Position numbers and translations under genes: made by a program. Below, in pieces: positions 221-12,824 of a stretch of DNA of 18,300 nucleotides (positions are counted from its first letter, which is position 1; each line of letters starts with the position of its first letter). The stretch lies in IMG/VR virus record IMGVR_UViG_2529292920_000008, one strand, 5' to 3'. The DNA comes from a virus (taxonomy: Duplodnaviria; Heunggongvirae; Uroviricota; Caudoviricetes). The notes under the pieces are model-generated. The model made no database searches. It was not told the DNA's origin and saw only the letters and a list, made by a program, of their open reading frames with translations.

Positions 221-493
221 TCATCTTGCTGTCAGTTGTTTGGATTTCCGGTAGCCTGCCGCGTAAAGAGCTACGTTCGGAAGACAAGTTGAGCCTTCAT
301 ATTTTCTGGTCAACGTTGTCAGTGTTATTACTTCTGCTCTCATTGCTGGTTTGCGCTTGCATTGCAAGACCACTCGAGAGGGGGTTGGTCTGTGTAGCTT
401 GTCGGAGCTAATCGCCTCCTGACTTTGCAGGTTTGCGCGACGAGCTCTACGACGAGAAGCTGAGGTGCCTTTAAATTCTGTTTTTCTGGACAT
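221..493 (-). CDS. N: N-type transcription antitermination protein (P22 gene 24-like C-terminus)
   Basis: 90-aa product starting MSRKTEFKGTSASRRRARRANLQ (arginine-rich motif near the N-terminus) and ending ...VALYAAGYRKSKQLTAR, which matches the C-terminus of P22 N as I recall it. GGGAGG Shine-Dalgarno before ATG 493. Sits leftward of the immunity region with a nut-like site upstream. The ORF-track start at 577 is an upstream extension. Confidence 0.7.
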   Translation of the reverse strand: MSRKTEFKGTSASRRRARRANLQSQEAISSDKLHRPTPSRVVLQCKRKPAMRAEVITLTTLTRKYEGSTCLPNVALYAAGYRKSKQLTAR

Positions 494-591: not shown

Positions 592-638
592 TGGCTTTTC
601 AGCCACGTAGTCGAGAGTTCGACGTTGTTTAAAGAGCC
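592..638 (-). promoter_or_regulatory. nutL candidate: boxA-like GCTCTTTAAACAA, small hairpin, boxB-like hairpin with GAAA loop
   Basis: On the leftward transcript: GGCUCUUUAAACAA (plus 625-638), hairpin GUCGA-ACUC-UCGAC (plus 610-623), then UGGCU-GAAA-AGCCA (plus 592-605). The same three-part layout recurs downstream of cro. Confidence 0.55.
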
Positions 639-659
639 TGCCAGTCTGTTCCGTTTGGC

Positions 660-892
660 TTCCAGCGTCCTGCTGACGGTTAAATAGTACGATATGTACT
701 TTATTGGGTTAATACTATTTGTTCTAAAATAGGGTGATTTTTTATAACACTTTGTATTTAATAGTGTTGTTTTTTAGCGTGGGTGTATCGCCTCGGCGAT
801 GTAAGGAGAGATCAGAATTGCGTGGTTTAGTGAGTTGTATCTATTTATTTTTCAATAAATACATTTGGTTATGTGTCTTTAGGTGGGGGCGT
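660..892. promoter_or_regulatory. oL/pL candidate region (left operators and leftward early promoter)
   Basis: AT-rich intergenic DNA between the terminator after the DinD-like gene and nutL. Contains near-palindromes AGTACGATATGTACT (680-694) and AACACT-N11-AGTGTT (749-771) that share a TAC-N5-GTA core with the cI/cro intergenic region. Exact operators and -10/-35 not resolved. Confidence 0.35.
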
Positions 893-923
893 GAGGCAAA
901 GAAAACCCGGCGCTGAGGCCGGG
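893..923 (-). terminator. intrinsic terminator on the minus strand, 3' of the DinD-like gene
   Basis: 6-bp GC stem CCCGGC/GCCGGG (906-911 with 918-923), 6-nt loop, followed on the minus strand by UUUUCUUUG. Lies 9 nt past the stop codon at 932-934. Confidence 0.6.
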
Positions 924-931
924 GTATGCAT

Positions 932-1774
932 TTATGGTTTTTTTTGGTCGTGCTTTGCTAGGGCTTTATGAGTTTTCTTAATGCTGCTTCTAACTTTCTG
1001 AATTTTTTCTTGGGAAAGTTTTATGTTTTCAGGGGCTGTTCCAGTGTTAGAAATCATTACATTGCGAACAGATCTCCCTACGGTCTCAGCAGCATTCTCT
1101 AGTTGAGACTGTCCCTTCAGGTTCTGGTTTCTGATTCTTGCTTCTGTCTGTGTAATTCTGAATATATTGGCCGCGAGCTCTTCGCTTCCCATGAAGTCAA
1201 GCATCGTTCCATCTTTTTTAGTTAGGCCTTTTCGAGCTTTCAACTGTGAGAGATTCATATTGTACATCCCACGGTAGCCCGCATTTTGAAATAGACCATA
1301 GTCGACTACTCCGTGTTTATGGGCTACATGACTGAGAGTTTTCTCTCTAGATGTAATCTCGCCACGCAAATAAACTCGATTAACTGCGTCATGGTTATGA
1401 TATGTAGTGTGTATTTCTGCTGCGAGCCCAGCAAAATAAGCTTGTGCATTTGCAACTTTTTGATTGCTGATGTCACCATTCATTACAATCAGATAACAAG
1501 CGAAACGAGTTAATTTAAAGTCATTTTTCGCATTTTCTGAAGGCATCTGGATGAAGTTATCGTATACAGGGATATCGAGGCTCACACATACAGATGTAGC
1601 TTTGTTAATGGCTTTCAATATCTGATCCATGCCATTATATCCAAGCATCATCGCTAAATCAGATGCAAACCAATAGGTAACACCGTTTTCTCTAGCGAAA
1701 TCATCAAATGTTAACTGTGATGTGTCATCGAAAACAGTAATTTGCCTACTCATATCACACCCGAACTTACTCAT
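932..1774 (-). CDS. DinD-like (DNA-damage-inducible protein D family) / Bro-N-like protein; accessory gene in the rexAB slot of the immunity region
   Basis: 280-aa ORF. N-terminal ...VTYWFASDLAMMLGYNG... resembles the Bro-N/KilA-N DNA-binding motif. I recall overall resemblance to DinD-family proteins, but this is memory, not alignment. AT-rich compared with neighbours. Same strand as cI, 80 nt downstream of it, with its own terminator. Confidence 0.6.
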   Translation of the reverse strand: MSKFGCDMSRQITVFDDTSQLTFDDFARENGVTYWFASDLAMMLGYNGMDQILKAINKATSVCVSLDIPVYDNFIQMPSENAKNDFKLTRFACYLIVMNGDISNQKVANAQAYFAGLAAEIHTTYHNHDAVNRVYLRGEITSREKTLSHVAHKHGVVDYGLFQNAGYRGMYNMNLSQLKARKGLTKKDGTMLDFMGSEELAANIFRITQTEARIRNQNLKGQSQLENAAETVGRSVRNVMISNTGTAPENIKLSQEKIQKVRSSIKKTHKALAKHDQKKP

Positions 1775-1854
1775 CGATTTTCCCTTATATTAATATAATG
1801 TGGATAGTTTGTCGCCAACTCGCTAAAGTTATTCATTATGAGGTTTGCCATCCA

Positions 1855-2514
1855 TCACCCAAACGTCTCTTCAGGCCACTGACTAGCGATAACTTTCCCC
1901 ACAACGGAACAACTCTCATTGCATGGGATCATTGGGTATTGTGGATTTAGTGGCTGTAGAAACACCTGACCGCTATCCCTGATCAGTTTCTTGAAGGTAA
2001 ATTCATCACCACCAAGTCTGGCTATGCAGAAATCGCCGGGCTCAACAGCTTGCTCTGGGTCAACCAGAATTAACATCCCGTCAGGAAAACTAGGTTTGGA
2101 ACCTGTTGGGGCGGTCATTGAGTTACCTTCAACCTCAAGCCAGAATGCAGAGTCACTGGCTTTTTTGGTTGTGCTTACCAATCTCTCCGCATCGCCTTTG
2201 GTAAAGGTTCTGAGTTCTGGAGAGAACATCCCAGCCTGAACATGAGAAAAAACAGGGTACTCATATTGTTTTTTAACTGGGGCCGATGAGTATTCGCCAA
2301 CAGGTGAAAATGTCCCGTCGTGGTTGAATGATATGTTATCAATACCAAGGTATTTAAACACCACACCAATATCACTAAGAGATGGATGACGAGATCCGCG
2401 CAACCAGTGTCCAATCCCACCCTGCGTCATACCTAGCTCTTCGGCTAACTTCTCTTGAGTTATGCCGAGCTCTTTCATTCTGGATCTAGCCAGTTCATAC
2501 CATTTCATTTTCAT
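1855..2514 (-). CDS. cI: CI prophage repressor, hybrid: lambda-type C-terminal dimerisation/autocleavage domain with a non-lambda HTH N-terminal domain
   Basis: About 135 C-terminal residues ([26 protein letters not shown]...[12 protein letters not shown]) essentially identical to lambda CI as I recall it. N-terminal [37 protein letters not shown] is an XRE-type HTH unlike lambda. Start taken at ATG 2514 (the ORF-track start at 2676 is an upstream extension); diverges from cro. Confidence 0.9.
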
Positions 2515-2624
2515 GTCCTTATTATTACGCTCTGTATTGCAACCATCCATGCACAATGTGTATTTTTGCTTGCATTCAAAAAGTACATATTGTATTTTTT
2601 CTTCATGGTTACTATGGAGGGCAT
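2515..2624. promoter_or_regulatory. oR/pRM/pR candidate region between divergent cI and cro
   Basis: 110-bp AT-rich spacer between divergent repressor genes. Repeated TGTATT motifs and near-palindrome TACATATTGTA (2583-2593). Possible pR: TTGCAT (2570-2575), 17 bp, TATTTT. Operator boundaries not resolved. Confidence 0.5.
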
Positions 2625-2840
2625 ATGAGCAACCTACGAAAATATCGAGAGTCACTGAATATCTCTCAAACAACACTTGCTAAGGCAGTTGGATGCACAC
2701 AGGGAGCTATCGGACATTGGGAATCTGGTCGTCGCTTCCCAGACCTTAAAACATGCCGTGCTCTTGTTGCGTGTCTAAACAAGTTAGGCGCAAAAGTAAG
2801 TCTTGATGACGTGTTCCCGCCGGAGCACAAAGCCGCTTAA
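2625..2840 (+). CDS. cro: Cro-like repressor (XRE-family HTH)
   Basis: 71 aa from ATG 2625 with GGAGGG Shine-Dalgarno. HTH segment [21 protein letters not shown]. Divergent from cI across the operator region. Confidence 0.8.
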
Positions 2841-2981: not shown

Positions 2982-3278
2982 ATGGAACAAACAAGTTACA
3001 GCAAACTATCACAGCGTGACGTTGATCGCGCAGAAACAGATTTACTCATCAACCTGTCAACGCTTACCCAGCGTGGTCTGGCAAAGATGATTGGCTGTCA
3101 TGAATCGAAGATAAGCAGAACGGACTGGCGGTTTATTGCTTCGGTCTTGTGTGCTTTCGGAATGGCATCAGACATCAGTCCAATTAGCAGGGCTTTTAAG
3201 TATGCGCTTGATGGAATCACAAAGAAAAAACGCCCGGCGGCAACCGAGCGTTCTGAACAAATCCAGATGGAGTTCTGA
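2982..3278 (+). CDS. cII: CII transcriptional activator (lambda-type C-terminus)
   Basis: 98 aa; C-terminal KKRPAATERSEQIQMEF identical to lambda CII as recalled; N-terminal part diverged. Sits between cro and O. Confidence 0.85.
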   Translation: MEQTSYSKLSQRDVDRAETDLLINLSTLTQRGLAKMIGCHESKISRTDWRFIASVLCAFGMASDISPISRAFKYALDGITKKKRPAATERSEQIQMEF

Positions 3279-5616: not shown

Positions 5617-6063
5617 ATGAAGCAAATATACATGCTTCGCAACGAAGCAATCAGAAACAACGCCATAGACGCAATACTCTCACTTCCGATCGACGACAAG
5701 TCACCTCACGAAGTCCACATTAAAGAACCCAGGCGGAGCAATCCTCAAAACCGCCTTATGTGGGCGTTATTGCAGGACGTATCACGTCAGGTGCTTTGGC
5801 ATGGAAAGAGACTTGCGCCGGAGGACTGGAAAGATCTGTTCACTGCCCTGTGGCTTAAGACCAAAAAACTGGAGCAACGAAGTGCGCCTGGTATCGACGG
5901 TGGCGTTGTCATGCTTGGCGTGCGTACCAGCAAAATGCGAAAGGCCAGCATGACTGAGCTTATCGAAATCATGTTCTGGTTCGGCTCAGAGCGCAACGTG
6001 CGGTGGAGTGATGACTCCCGGCGAGAGTATGAATGGTCACAACGAAAAGGTAGGGCTGCATGA
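5617..6063 (+). CDS. ninB: NinB-like recombination protein (Orf family)
   Basis: 148 aa with recalled similarity to lambda NinB (NRSxxQNRxxWAxLxDVSRQVxWHG, GxRxSKMR, KWSDD motifs). Confidence 0.8.
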   Translation: MKQIYMLRNEAIRNNAIDAILSLPIDDKSPHEVHIKEPRRSNPQNRLMWALLQDVSRQVLWHGKRLAPEDWKDLFTALWLKTKKLEQRSAPGIDGGVVMLGVRTSKMRKASMTELIEIMFWFGSERNVRWSDDSRREYEWSQRKGRAA

Positions 6064-6587
6064 CTATCAAATCAAATACGCCAGCACACGACAAGGACTG
6101 CTGGCAAACGCCGCTTTGGCTTTTTGATGCACTGGATATTGAGTTTGGATTCTGGCTGGATTCGGCAGCGAGCGACAAAAATGCTCTGTGCGCTCACTGG
6201 CTAACTGAGGCTGACGACGCGCTAAATTCTGAGTGGGTAAGCCACGGTGCAATCTGGAATAACCCACCGTACAGCAATATCAGGCCGTGGGTGGAAAAAG
6301 CCGCTGAGCAGTGTATACAACAACGACAGACGGTAGTGATGCTTGTGCCAGAGGATATGTCAGTCGGATGGTTCAGCAAGGCTCTGGAGAGTGTCGACGA
6401 AGTTCGTATTATCACTGATGGACGGATTAATTTTGTCGAACCATCGACAGGACTGGAGAAGAAGGGAAACAGCAAAGGTTCCATGCTGCTGATTTGGCGA
6501 CCGTTCATCAGTTCTCGACGGATGTTTACTACTGTATCCAAAGCGGCATTGATGGCGATCGGGCAGGGCGTCAGGAGGGCAGCATGA
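6060..6587 (+). CDS. phage DNA N6-adenine methyltransferase (Dam-like, small phage MTase family)
   Basis: 175 aa with DCWQTP...[11 protein letters not shown]...LDSAAS near the N-terminus, catalytic NPPY motif ([10 protein letters not shown]), and [13 protein letters not shown] near the C-terminus. ATGA overlaps with ninB and ninE. Confidence 0.8.
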
Positions 6588-6766: not shown

Positions 6767-6933
6767 TTGACCAAAATCGAAGTTACGAACAAGAAAGCGT
6801 CGAGCGAGCTTTAACGTGCGCTAACTGCGGTCAGAAGCTGCATGTGCTGGAAGTTCACGTGTGTGAGCACTGTTGCGCAGAACTTATGAGCGATCCGAAT
6901 AGCTCAATGTACGAGGAAGAAGACGATGAATGA
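6763..6933 (+). CDS. ninF: NinF-like protein (Cys-rich)
   Basis: [56 protein letters not shown], near-identical to lambda NinF as recalled. Start assigned to GTG 6763 overlapping the ninE stop; start uncertain. Confidence 0.7.
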
Positions 6934-7648
6934 GTTAATAAATGGCAATGCCATAAAAATGACAAGCATTGAAATCGCTGAGTTGGTTGGTAAGCGTCAT
7001 GACAATGTGAAACGTACCATCGAAACGCTGGCTAAAAATGGTGTTATCCGGCTTCCTCAAATTGAGGATTGTGGAAGAATCAATGGGTTAGGCTTAAATC
7101 AAAGTTTTTGTGTGTATGTATTCGAAGGCGAACAAGGAAAGCGAGACAGTATTGTCGTTGTAGCCCAGTTGTCGCCGGAATTCACGGCTCGCCTTGTTGA
7201 CCGTTGGCGAGAGCTTGAAGAAGCTGCGGTTAATATCCCAAAAACGCTACCAGAAGCGTTGCGCCTTGCTGCTGACCTTGCTGAGCAGAAAATGCAACTG
7301 GAAAACCAGCTAGCAATTGCCGCACCTAAAGTTGAGTTTGCCGATCGCGTTGGCGAGGCCAGCGGAATTTTGATTGGAAACTTTGCAAAGGTTGTTGGAA
7401 TTGGTCCAAACAAACTGTTTGCGTGGATGCGCGATCACAAAATCCTTATTGCTTCAGGTTCCCGGCGCAATGTGCCAATGCAGGAATATATGGATCGCGG
7501 CTATTTCACAGTGAAAGAAACAGCGGTCAACACAAATCACGGAATACAGATATCGTTCACCACAAAAATCACCGGGTGTGGTCAACAGTGGCTGACCAGA
7601 AAGCTGCTCGATAACGGAATGCTGAAAGTAACAGGGGAGGCTGCTTAA
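6926..7648 (+). CDS. phage antirepressor-type protein (Rha-like N-terminal region plus AntB/KilAC-like C-terminal domain)
   Basis: 240 aa. N-terminal MTSIEIAELVGKRHDNVKRTIETL resembles the Rha regulatory motif; C-terminal half resembles Ant-type antirepressor C-domains. Family assignment from memory. Confidence 0.7.
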   Translation: MNELINGNAIKMTSIEIAELVGKRHDNVKRTIETLAKNGVIRLPQIEDCGRINGLGLNQSFCVYVFEGEQGKRDSIVVVAQLSPEFTARLVDRWRELEEAAVNIPKTLPEALRLAADLAEQKMQLENQLAIAAPKVEFADRVGEASGILIGNFAKVVGIGPNKLFAWMRDHKILIASGSRRNVPMQEYMDRGYFTVKETAVNTNHGIQISFTTKITGCGQQWLTRKLLDNGMLKVTGEAA

Positions 7649-9300: not shown

Positions 9301-10059
9301 ATGAGTTGTAAGCCAATGTTATCATCTTGTATTGGGGTGGTTATGAAGGATGGTGCACTGCTCAGGAGTTCTTCACTTTTTATTGCCTACATGGGATGCC
9401 TTGGATGGGGGAGTGCTTATTTCTATGGATGGGGTACTTCTTTTTACTACGGCTTCCCATGGTGGATTGTAGGTGCAGGTGTTGATGATGTTGCCAGAAG
9501 TTTATTTTTTGCAGTTATCGTCATTGCTATATTTCTTATCGGTTGGGGTATTGGTGTTGTATTCTTTTTCGCAGTGAAAAGAAAACATTCTATGCAAGAG
9601 CTAAATGTATTTCGCCTTTATTTTGCTGTGGAATTATTGTTTGTGCCGGCAATTATTGAGTTTTCTATATTGAGACAGAAGATTCAGGTACCTCTTTTGC
9701 TACTGTCAGCAGCGATTGCGCTGGCGGTTACAATTTCGATAAGATCTTATGGGCGATTTTTATCGGTATCATGCTTCTATGATAAGCCATTTATAAAAAA
9801 ACATTTTTTTGAGATTGTGATGATTGCTTTTGTGGCATATTTTGGGCTTTTTTCATTTCTGACAGGATATTACAAACCACAGTTTAAGAAAGAATATGAA
9901 ATGATTAATTATAATGATGGTTGGTATTATGTTCTTGCTCGTTATGATAATTGTCTGGTTTTGTCTACTTCTTTCAATGCAGGTAGTAAAAGGTTTGTCA
10001 TTTATCAATCAGCACAAGATAAGAATCTTCAGGTTGATATTGTAAGGACCAGAATTTAA
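9301..10059 (+). CDS. hypothetical multi-pass inner-membrane protein; moron between PR' and the lysis cassette
   Basis: 252-aa ORF (alternative start ATG 9343 behind GGGGTGG) with about 5 hydrophobic helices (e.g. LFFAVIVIAIFLIGWGIGVVFFFAV) and a ~50-aa hydrophilic C-terminal tail. AT-rich relative to flanking genes. No family recognised. Confidence 0.6.
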   Translation: MSCKPMLSSCIGVVMKDGALLRSSSLFIAYMGCLGWGSAYFYGWGTSFYYGFPWWIVGAGVDDVARSLFFAVIVIAIFLIGWGIGVVFFFAVKRKHSMQELNVFRLYFAVELLFVPAIIEFSILRQKIQVPLLLLSAAIALAVTISIRSYGRFLSVSCFYDKPFIKKHFFEIVMIAFVAYFGLFSFLTGYYKPQFKKEYEMINYNDGWYYVLARYDNCLVLSTSFNAGSKRFVIYQSAQDKNLQVDIVRTRI

Positions 10060-10489
10060 TTGGCTGCATAAATAATATTTTAAGTTGCAAGTTGGCTATT
10101 CGTAGGAATAGAACCTTAGGCATGCTGAATGCGTTTTCTGAACATTGTTTTATAAACTGTGTCTGCTTGCTGTTGTGATCCTGCTTTTAGTGATGGTGAT
10201 GATGGATTTCACCAGCAGGATAATGTTGGTACTGACTGATGGCGCTCTGGTCTGCGGCATTGTGGTATTGCTGTGGCCGATGATGAAAGAACAGAATGAA
10301 TAATCCTTGACTTTTTTGTTTACTGTTTATTAAAAAATCAACCGCATGGTGAATCCTCCTTGGAGGGGCTAAATGATCGAGTTTTAAGGGCACGTAGCGA
10401 GTTCTGTTTGATCATTGCAGAACTTAGCGGGAGGCGCCATGCGTACATCACTAATGTTATTTCCTTCTATCATTTTCCTTGTGAGTTCT

Positions 10490-10516
10490 GGCTGCGCATG
10501 GCGCGGCCTTTTTTTT
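10490..10516 (+). terminator. intrinsic terminator, plus strand (tR'-like candidate)
   Basis: 8-bp stem GGCTGCGC/GCGCGGCC (one G-U pair), 3-nt loop, followed by eight T residues. Confidence 0.6.
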
Positions 10517-10692
10517 ATGACCTGCCACTGGCAGATGGTCATCCTGTGATTTGATTCCGGTTCCGGCTTTTTAACTCTGTTCCTGTACACGGGAGAAATT
10601 CTATGTCGATTAATCGTTATGATATTGGTTACAAGAAGTACCACGTATTGTGTTGAGATAGAAAGCATGGTGCCAGAGGTAAATGCAGCAGC

Positions 10693-10745
10693 ATAATAAA
10701 AAAGAGCCAGCGCAGAAGAGAACGGGTAAAAGAGTCTGCGCTGGC
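10693..10745 (-). terminator. intrinsic terminator, minus strand
   Basis: Perfect 11-bp inverted repeat GCCAGCGCAGA / TCTGCGCTGGC (10706-10716 with 10735-10745), 18-nt loop, followed on the minus strand by CUCUUUUUUAUUAU. Confidence 0.45.
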
Positions 10746-10861
10746 GTGGGGATATTCCCCGTGGAGAAATGATATGTAACACACATCGGGAACCTTTCTA
10801 TATAAACATTATCATTATTGTCAATCATAACAGTCAGGTATTATGACGTTTATGCATCAGG

Positions 10862-12156: not shown

Positions 12157-12299
12157 ATGTCCGCAGTAAACGCGCATCTCACGCGCATATTAACGAGAGC
12201 CTTTCAGTAAGCGAGCCTGAGAAATGCCGTTATAGGTGGCGACCTCTCTCGGGCGGCTTTTCTGTGAGACAGGCTCACTTTCTAAAAGGTAAAGACGCT

Positions 12300-12824
12300 A
12301 TGAATAATCATTCAGTTATTCCAGCCTTCGACTTCCGAGAAATGGTGCAAGCCAAAAACGGAGAGGTCGTTACCACATCCAGAAAAATTGCCAAGTACTT
12401 CGGCAAGCGACACGGTGATGTTCTCAGGAAAATCGAGCAGGTTAAGGCTGATTGCTCGCGTGAGTTTAGCCAACGCAATTTTGCGTCGGCTGATTATATC
12501 GATGAGCAGGGCAAGGTTCGCCCGATGTACAGCCTGACGAAAGATGGCTGGATCATGGTTGTGATGGGGTTCACCGGGAAAGCTGCTGCGGCAATCAAGG
12601 AGAGCTATATCGCAGCATTCAACTGGATGGCAGAGCAACTGAGCCGCCGCATGGCAATTGGCGAAGAAATGCAGCACCGCTACGCCATCAAAGAAACACG
12701 CTCAAAGCTGAAAGGTACGATCGGCAGTCGGTTAATGAACGAACGGAAGAAAGAGAAGCGTGTCCTGGCTGTCGAGCATGAATACATTTTGCAGGTGACA
12801 CAGCCTGAACTGCTGATTAATTGA
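12300..12824 (+). CDS. Rha-family phage regulatory protein
   Basis: N-terminal VVTTSRKIAKYFGKRHGDVLRKIEQV matches the Rha N-terminal motif. Start taken at ATG 12300 (the ORF track gives GTG 12264). Sits between the lysis cassette and cos. Confidence 0.7.
   Translation: MNNHSVIPAFDFREMVQAKNGEVVTTSRKIAKYFGKRHGDVLRKIEQVKADCSREFSQRNFASADYIDEQGKVRPMYSLTKDGWIMVVMGFTGKAAAAIKESYIAAFNWMAEQLSRRMAIGEEMQHRYAIKETRSKLKGTIGSRLMNERKKEKRVLAVEHEYILQVTQPELLIN

Follow-up and report, generated by a model that had tools for sequence, protein, structure and literature searches.

The window, that is, the whole 18,300-nt stretch of IMG/VR virus record IMGVR_UViG_2529292920_000008 (Caudoviricetes), carries directly downstream of its cI-type repressor gene, in the slot that holds rexAB in lambda, a single gene of the DinD family with an N-terminal Bro-N domain. 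The family and fold of the protein, the cassette in which its gene resides, the hotspot that receives the cassette, the conserved position of the gene and the selective constraint upon it are established here. The function favoured for the protein is that of a lysogen-expressed exclusion or abortive-infection factor that would bind DNA structures and act on phage DNA, a reading held tentatively and at a probability of roughly 40%. The elements concerned are the following.

932-1774, minus strand: DinD-family/Bro-N gene of 280 amino acids (aa), WP_000032717.1 = E2348C_RS05280 (open reading frame (ORF), profile matches, RefSeq)
1445-1690, minus strand: Bro-N domain, aa 29-110 (Pfam PF02498, 33.6 bits against a cut-off of 25.6)
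935-1444, minus strand: basic, all-helical C-terminal domain, aa 111-280 (AlphaFold2 helices, alignment columns, isoelectric point (pI))
1775-1854, minus strand: cassette-specific 80-nt leader (Shine-Dalgarno AAGGGA at 1781-1786, -10-like TATATT at 1792-1797)
924-1854, minus strand: cargo cassette exchanged within the immunity region (breakpoints from BLASTN with five prophages)
896-923, minus strand: intrinsic terminator of the cI/immunity operon (stem 906-923, U-tract 896-905; terminator scan)

The ORF extends from an ATG at 1774-1772 to a stop codon at 932-934 and is separated by 80 nt from the cI stop codon (1855-1857) on the same strand, reproducing the coordinates and co-orientation given by an earlier, sequence-only reading of the window. 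RefSeq labels the product only as a 'BRO family protein'. The first ATG appears, from the sequence around it, to be the real start, given the Shine-Dalgarno sequence that precedes it and the first seven codons, which differ only synonymously from those of a Yersinia copy. The GC content of 39.7% (cI 46.1%, whole window 48.6%) falls within the lowest 6% of 843-bp windows and bears out the earlier description of the gene as AT-rich. When window positions 932-1774 were compared with a 95%-identical IMG/VR copy (L104:3001-3843), the proportion of synonymous differences (pS) was 0.69 and the ratio of non-synonymous to synonymous change (dN/dS) ~0.014, with synonymous sites near saturation in this pair and saturated in every more distant comparison. 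Judged by this substitution pattern, the protein is functional and very tightly constrained, and a chance ORF is excluded because of the low dN/dS. Rarity in E. coli and low GC content might be taken to indicate inert hitchhiking cargo or a decaying gene, but the ORF is intact and its position is conserved across several bacterial families, and as a dN/dS of this order excludes inert cargo, that explanation is left with scarcely any probability. A ratio this low is also unusual for prophage accessory or defence cargo.

The sequence-only reading had described a Bro-N-like N-terminus within a protein resembling the DinD family, and both descriptions were upheld. The Pfam Bro-N match lies above its gathering score. 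Escherichia coli K-12 DinD (NC_000913.3) is collinear with the prophage protein and 33% identical to it over aa 30-270 (DinD 17-273; BLASTP E 9e-44). Within a 58-sequence alignment (A1), the best-conserved part of the protein is the C-terminal DinD domain, which contains the near-invariant motifs FQNAGYRGMYN and LDFMGxEELAANxFRxTQTE; FQN.GY.G.Y and LD.MGS.ELAAN.FR.TQTE are common to the query and K-12 DinD. The NCBIfam DinD equivalog model NF008573 scored 198.6 bits over aa 22-278, below its cut-off of 242 bits, and the prophage protein is therefore, by profile score, a DinD-family paralogue and not an equivalog. PHROG 8036, of unknown function, was matched at 3e-147.

The Bro-N domain, which the protein has in common with Bro-N/Ant antirepressors, raises the alternative that it acts as an antirepressor or KilA-N regulator, with Bro-N binding either to a repressor or another regulator, such as one encoded by a heteroimmune prophage in the same cell, or to specific DNA sites so as to control transcription. 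Such a role would agree with tblastn matches limited to the Bro-N domain, which are annotated antirepressors in actinophages, with a BFVD fold search whose matches include a 'regulatory protein', a 'repressor domain protein' and Ant-like proteins, and with a Pasteurella paper in which a homologue is labelled 'putative phage transcriptional regulator'. However, the BFVD matches are to KilA-N/Bro-N N-terminal domains only, and these similarities are confined to the N-terminal ~100 residues of a protein conserved best in its C-terminal domain. Bro-N/Ant antirepressors carry other C-terminal domains (ANT/KilAC and others), and Rha/ANT-type antirepressor genes are already present elsewhere in this phage, its real ANT-domain protein being encoded at 6926-7648. 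An antirepressor role is accordingly considered improbable.

Although the sequence-only reading could name no described system to which the gene belongs, a label does exist in the form of PADLOC PDC-S13, a 'guilt-by-embedding' candidate. The PDC-S13 model PDLC04919 matched the protein essentially along its length (2.1e-86 over aa 17-279), and PDLC04918 and PDLC04920 were also matched. K-12 DinD scores 402 bits on PDC-S13, more strongly than the prophage copy, and PDC-S13 is therefore essentially the DinD family. The profile searches that had been proposed as a check on the gene thus returned Pfam Bro-N, NF008573 below cut-off and PDC-S13, with no match to the PADLOC BstA model. The preprint from which the PDC labels derive listed 145 candidate systems drawn from genes found within BREX, DISARM and type I restriction-modification (RM) loci, with anti-phage activity yet to be assayed; the neighbours here are instead those of a prophage immunity operon, with cI on one side and the terminator, PL and N on the other. 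The family is large and occurs in many phyla, with 2393 matches at E<=1e-5 in a 90%-clustered database, 452 clusters at 50% identity with E<=1e-30, and both motif patterns present in 414 species-representative genomes.

The same data bear on whether the protein modulates RM, by restriction alleviation or by anti-restriction sensing in concert with host type I enzymes. DinD-domain genes occur inside type I RM operons (PMC9881135), and the N-terminal 276 of the 717 positions of the PADLOC HsdS ('Specificity_I') model match the prophage protein, so that a DinD-like region forms the N-terminus of that model. Distant family members (<=56% identity), which lack a repressor link, lie among heterogeneous neighbours including Type ISP, MmeI, N6_Mtase, Eco57I and ResIII genes as well as transposases. 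In the loci examined, however, the prophage sub-clade never adjoins RM genes, and the immunity region of the window contains no RM gene, the only methylase being the Dam enzyme at 6060-6587. A role in RM is therefore rated lower still than an antirepressor role.

To obtain the fold, an AlphaFold2 model was calculated from alignment A1 without templates (mean predicted local distance difference test score (pLDDT) 89.6, predicted template modelling score (pTM) 0.80). The model consists of an N-terminal α/β domain (pLDDT ~90) and a long C-terminal helical domain formed by helices across residues 105-276. A fold search of such a model had also been suggested earlier and, when run with Foldseek, gave DdrC of Deinococcus as the only strong match in the PDB, with six DdrC chains aligned over ~230 columns that span both domains of the predicted structure (E 1.2e-5 to 2.5e-2, probability 0.99-1.0; next match E 0.7). 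The DdrC entries were released in 2022-2023, which we take to be later than the training cut-off of the AlphaFold weights used. Identity in the structural alignments is 16-20% and the global root-mean-square deviation is high, which suggests that the domain orientation differs between DdrC and the predicted model.

DdrC has been described as Deinococcus-specific and without structural homologues, and forms a dimer in which each chain combines an acidic winged-helix N-terminal domain with a four-helix C-terminal domain (PMC9303277, PMC11347143). Its DNA ligands are nicks, double-strand ends and supercoiled DNA, bound in basic grooves to which both domains contribute, and it compacts DNA (PMC9303277, PMC11347143). 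In addition to the structural match over both domains, the prophage protein displays the same split of an acidic N-terminal half (aa 1-110, pI 4.5) and a basic C-terminal half (aa 111-280, pI 10.0), and DdrC and DinD are alike in being induced by DNA damage. No sequence match between the two was detected with phmmer or the A1 profile, and DNA binding by the prophage protein is a prediction.

The slot occupied by the gene was compared with that of five E. coli prophages whose flanks are 94-99.7% identical to the window and which hold other cargo between cI and the terminator; three encode the identical cI WP_096246228.1 and two the closely related WP_001302016.1. BLASTN put the breakpoints at window 923-944 towards the terminator and 1851-1855 towards cI, and the exchangeable unit is therefore about 924-1854, comprising the 80-nt leader, a single ORF and a few bases, with swaps running precisely from the cI stop codon to the hairpin. 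The prophages with identical cI carry, one each, two unknown ORFs, HicA with DUF1902, and an NYN-domain gene, and those with WP_001302016.1 carry an SDH/ClpP-like protease with a small ORF and a DUF1828 with DUF6978-like ORF pair, the latter a weak match to PADLOC PDC-M24A/B. This alternative cargo on a common backbone, exchanged at the cI stop codon and the terminator, confirms the cargo hotspot that had been proposed for the rexAB slot. The backbone itself is common, being present in 1683 of 5426 complete E. coli genomes.

The terminator, in which the hairpin CCCGGC-CUCAGC-GCCGGG is followed by UUUUCUUU (RNA fold -12.7 kcal/mol), had been attributed to the gene itself. This attribution was rejected: homology to the prophages with other cargo extends up to window 923-944 and includes the hairpin, which lies in the common backbone and therefore belongs to the immunity operon. 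As regards a moron, an autonomous unit of promoter, gene and terminator, the terminator is common backbone, a -10-like element is conserved in the leader and no consensus promoter was called.

Close relatives of the protein occupy the same position well beyond E. coli. Homologues lie directly downstream of a repressor in Yersinia (81% identity), Providencia (77%), Pasteurella (67%), Neisseria (65%) and a Microbulbifer prophage (52%), and in the isolated phage Pmp14 the DinD-like gene follows a 'CI-like repressor'. From IMG/VR, 52 loci were recovered, 39 of them at >=64% identity with upstream sequence, and in 37 of these 39 a cI-like gene on the same strand directly precedes the DinD-like gene or is separated from it by one gene, usually with a small divergent cro-like ORF beyond it. 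Peptidase_S24 was detected in 30 and HTH_3 in 33 of 46 distinct upstream proteins. Relatives at >=64% identity thus follow cI-type repressors in Escherichia, Yersinia, Providencia, Pasteurellaceae and Neisseria. Because the distant members are not repressor-linked, adjacency to a repressor marks one sub-clade, which forms a single cluster in the 50%-identity library. No report of this sub-clade, of the DdrC link or of the strength of constraint was found in literature searches.

The adjoining repressors share as little as 16-30% identity, and many immunity types are therefore represented. Across the set, the repressors range from 16 to 100% identity while the DinD-like protein stays at 64-100%, which argues against a repressor-specific partner of the kind that an antirepressor would have. 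Downstream of the DinD-like gene in Pasteurella and Microbulbifer prophages come genes of the toxin-antitoxin type (a Gp49/HigB-like protein with an HTH protein, and HicB; L010:6866-7467, L153:3857-4458, L014:7356-7847), so that the slot can hold a small accessory cluster.

The 80-nt gap between cI and the ORF contains no terminator or stable structure (terminator scan; folding z = +1.13), and read-through from the cI promoters is therefore what one would most simply expect, in line with rexAB and with what is presumed of bstA; co-transcription with cI is plausible on this arrangement. The leader is not common to the prophages with other cargo by BLASTN, and its last ~25 nt (1775-1800) are conserved from Escherichia to Neisseria with the consensus TTTATGATAAAATAAAGGAT (alignment A4, columns ~150-190), with the sequence further upstream not alignable across genera. 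These ~25 nt could represent a promoter -10 region, a translation signal or another cis element, and a separate weak promoter in the leader is possible.

The prophage copy and host DinD are alike in collinear homology, two-domain layout, C-terminal motifs and PDC-S13 match, yet differ in setting and regulation, one being cargo after cI that falls below the equivalog cut-off and the other a chromosomal SOS gene. A perfect LexA box, CTGTATATAAATACAG, precedes the start of K-12 dinD by 46 nt, whereas no LexA box was found upstream of the prophage copy (1775-1854). A LexA-like site with one mismatch, CTGTTTTCGATGACAC, is present at 1722-1737 on the minus strand, inside the ORF ~37 nt past the ATG, and across the whole window such sites number about what chance would give. 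Control of the gene by SOS through LexA was therefore rejected, and the SOS-linked function entertained by the sequence-only reading finds no support in cis. Given the LexA box upstream of K-12 dinD and its absence from the prophage leader, regulation has presumably shifted from SOS induction to expression in the lysogen.

The main rival to exclusion is that the protein would serve the prophage itself as a modulator of RecA, SOS or recombination, expressed with cI and dismantling RecA filaments on duplex DNA so as to tune recombination, spontaneous induction or the DNA-damage tolerance of the lysogen, without excluding other phages. Prophages often carry SOS-type modulators (DinI-like, UmuD-like) and RexAB has been reported to influence the lysis-lysogeny switch, both of which count towards such a role. 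So do the full-length homology to DinD with its core motifs kept, the extreme purifying selection, which suits a conserved host target, and a passage of PMC4849656, citing Uranga 2011, in which DinD is listed among the proteins that remove RecA filaments. Against it, the embedding of the family in RM, BREX and DISARM loci and its fusion to HsdS point to conflict with foreign DNA, and the other cargo of the slot looks toxin- or defence-like. Furthermore, DinD reportedly acts on post-synaptic filaments on double-stranded DNA and not on the single-stranded DNA filament that triggers repressor cleavage. A role confined to the prophage's own RecA and SOS economy is possible though rather unlikely; exclusion and RecA/SOS functions are not mutually exclusive and could coincide.

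The closest analogue of the prophage gene in architecture is BstA. BstA of Salmonella prophage BTP1 is a protein of ~300 aa with a KilA-N-like N-terminal domain, encoded just downstream of cI, that aborts infection at sites of phage replication and has a DNA self-immunity element, aba, at the 5' end of its gene (PMC8585504). Both are single genes for proteins of about 300 aa placed after cI and upstream of N and ending at a terminator, both combine a KilA-N/Bro-N-type N-terminal domain with a second domain, and both are widely associated with prophage repressors. Homology between them was nevertheless rejected (BLASTP E 1.8; hhalign of A1 against A5, probability 0.5%). The prophage protein matched neither the PADLOC BstA model, which BstA itself matches, nor Pfam PF26567 (BstA-like C-terminal domain). 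No aba-like repeat or structure was found around the start of the DinD-like gene, a stretch in which leader and initial codons are kept from genus to genus. BstA offers a precedent for a KilA-N-type protein encoded downstream of cI that aborts infection. RexAB of lambda, the classic lysogen-expressed exclusion function (discussed in PMC8585504), is encoded in the equivalent slot, between cI and the terminator of the immunity operon and in the same orientation as cI, but consists of two genes including a membrane component, whereas the cassette encodes one protein of an unrelated family that is predicted to be soluble.

Exclusion acting on foreign DNA is favoured because of the slot and its alternative cargo together with the linkage to repressors across immunity types, and because of the embedding of the family in RM and BREX loci together with the DdrC- and DinD-like biochemistry. 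In such a mechanism read-through from the cI promoters would account for transcription of the gene in the lysogen, perhaps aided by a separate weak promoter within the conserved leader. The product, probably dimeric like DdrC, would bind DNA structures rather than sequences, candidate targets being ends, nicks, recombination or replication intermediates and RecA-coated duplex as reported for DinD. Binding on superinfecting phage DNA would block replication or recombination of the incoming phage, and the outcome would be superinfection exclusion or abortive infection that shields the lysogen, a BstA- or RexAB-like function performed by an unrelated protein.

Several observations weigh against exclusion. 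Literature searches covering PDC-S13, DinD in phage defence and Bro-N in defence found no anti-phage validation, PDC-S13 is one of 145 candidates put forward by embedding, and DinD and Bro-N are not mentioned in the DefensePredictor preprint. Expression in the lysogen is something that we infer, and the promoter scan called no consensus sigma-70 promoter in the 80-nt leader. Searches of PDB sequences by phmmer with the protein and by the A1 profile found nothing, DdrC included, and since no sequence-level link was detected, the proposed relation to DdrC is one of predicted structure. The known activities of DdrC, circularising and protecting DNA, are repair-like and not inhibitory. The very low dN/dS is atypical of arms-race defence genes and would be better explained by a target that is itself conserved, for example RecA or a generic DNA structure. 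Finally, the cassette is rare, occurring in 10 of the 5426 complete E. coli genomes with all copies 100% identical, and blastn across these genomes revealed, besides these 10, no divergent copies.

An extension of the exclusion reading would place DinD (E. coli SOS regulon), DdrC (Deinococcus radiation/desiccation regulon) and the PDC-S13 genes found within RM/BREX loci in one widespread superfamily of dimeric sensors of DNA breaks or structure. One highly conserved branch of it would have been taken up by temperate Gamma- and Betaproteobacteria phages to serve, in linkage with the repressor, as an immune effector recognising ends, nicks or recombination intermediates of invading phage DNA. 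This wider proposal is regarded as doubtful.

The surroundings of the gene are those of a lambdoid immunity region. Window positions 600-2700 correspond to 1,050,516-1,052,616 of the E. coli O127:H6 E2348/69 chromosome at 99.9% identity, in a region of this enteropathogenic E. coli (EPEC) strain annotated as a complete-looking lambdoid prophage adjoining torS. The annotated order is int, xis, recombination genes, kil, N, cI, cro, cII, O and P, followed beyond P by the nin region, Q, lysis genes, terminase and portal. The other features of the window are as follows.

1855-2550, minus strand: cI-type repressor WP_096246228.1 (Pfam HTH_3 and Peptidase_S24, RefSeq)
2625-2840, plus strand: cro-like repressor, divergent from cI (Pfam HTH_3 and P22_Cro, RefSeq)
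2982-3278, plus strand: cII
221-493, minus strand: antiterminator N, downstream of the terminator and the left operator and promoter (OL/PL) region (Pfam N_peptide E 8e-32, RefSeq)
684-700, no strand: putative OL, operator-like palindrome AGTACGATATGTACT (deduced from k-mer comparison with the cI-cro intergenic region)
6926-7648, plus strand: protein with Rha N-terminal and ANT/KilAC antirepressor C-terminal parts, nin region
12264-12824, plus strand: Rha-family gene directly after the lysis cassette
6060-6587, plus strand: solitary phage Dam-type N6-adenine methyltransferase, nin region (Pfam Dam E 5e-64)

The positions of N, cI, cro and cII named in the sequence-only reading agree with the Pfam matches. 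The cI start is ambiguous, being placed at 2550 in RefSeq with an alternative ATG at 2511. RefSeq divides 221-693 on the minus strand into N (221-493) and a 'frameshifted hypothetical' pseudogene (471-693), and a mechanical ORF at 221-577 (118 aa) has its N_peptide family match at aa 27-118. Palindromes of the type AGTAC-N5-GTACT occur at 684-700 and 839-864, upstream of N, and at 2577-2596 between cI and cro, and are presumably the OL and right operator (OR) sites; ~165 AT-rich nt separate the terminator from the putative OL. Between the Q antiterminator and the holin lie two ORFs with no meaningful Pfam match (9301-10059, plus strand; 10384-10782, minus strand), an interval that in related phages is a slot for Stx and other cargo.

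The DinD/PDC-S13 family and the hotspot were known; what is new is a differently regulated, repressor-linked member. DinD has been a named SOS gene for decades and its cellular role is unclear, and the family was recently flagged as a possible anti-phage candidate. A single-gene cassette of 931 bp in the best-known lambdoid exclusion slot provides a clean experimental handle on DinD-like function, with prophages that encode the same cI and carry other cargo as natural isogenic controls. The structural link to DdrC points to possible binding of nicked, end-bearing and supercoiled DNA and joins two DNA-damage regulons previously regarded as unrelated. Were phage exclusion by the protein to be borne out, it would represent a new type of effector in the prophage immunity of pathogenic E. 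coli, Yersinia, Providencia, Pasteurellaceae and Neisseria, and, should the superfamily proposal hold, it would give DinD-like proteins a first function and define a new mechanistic class of prophage exclusion.

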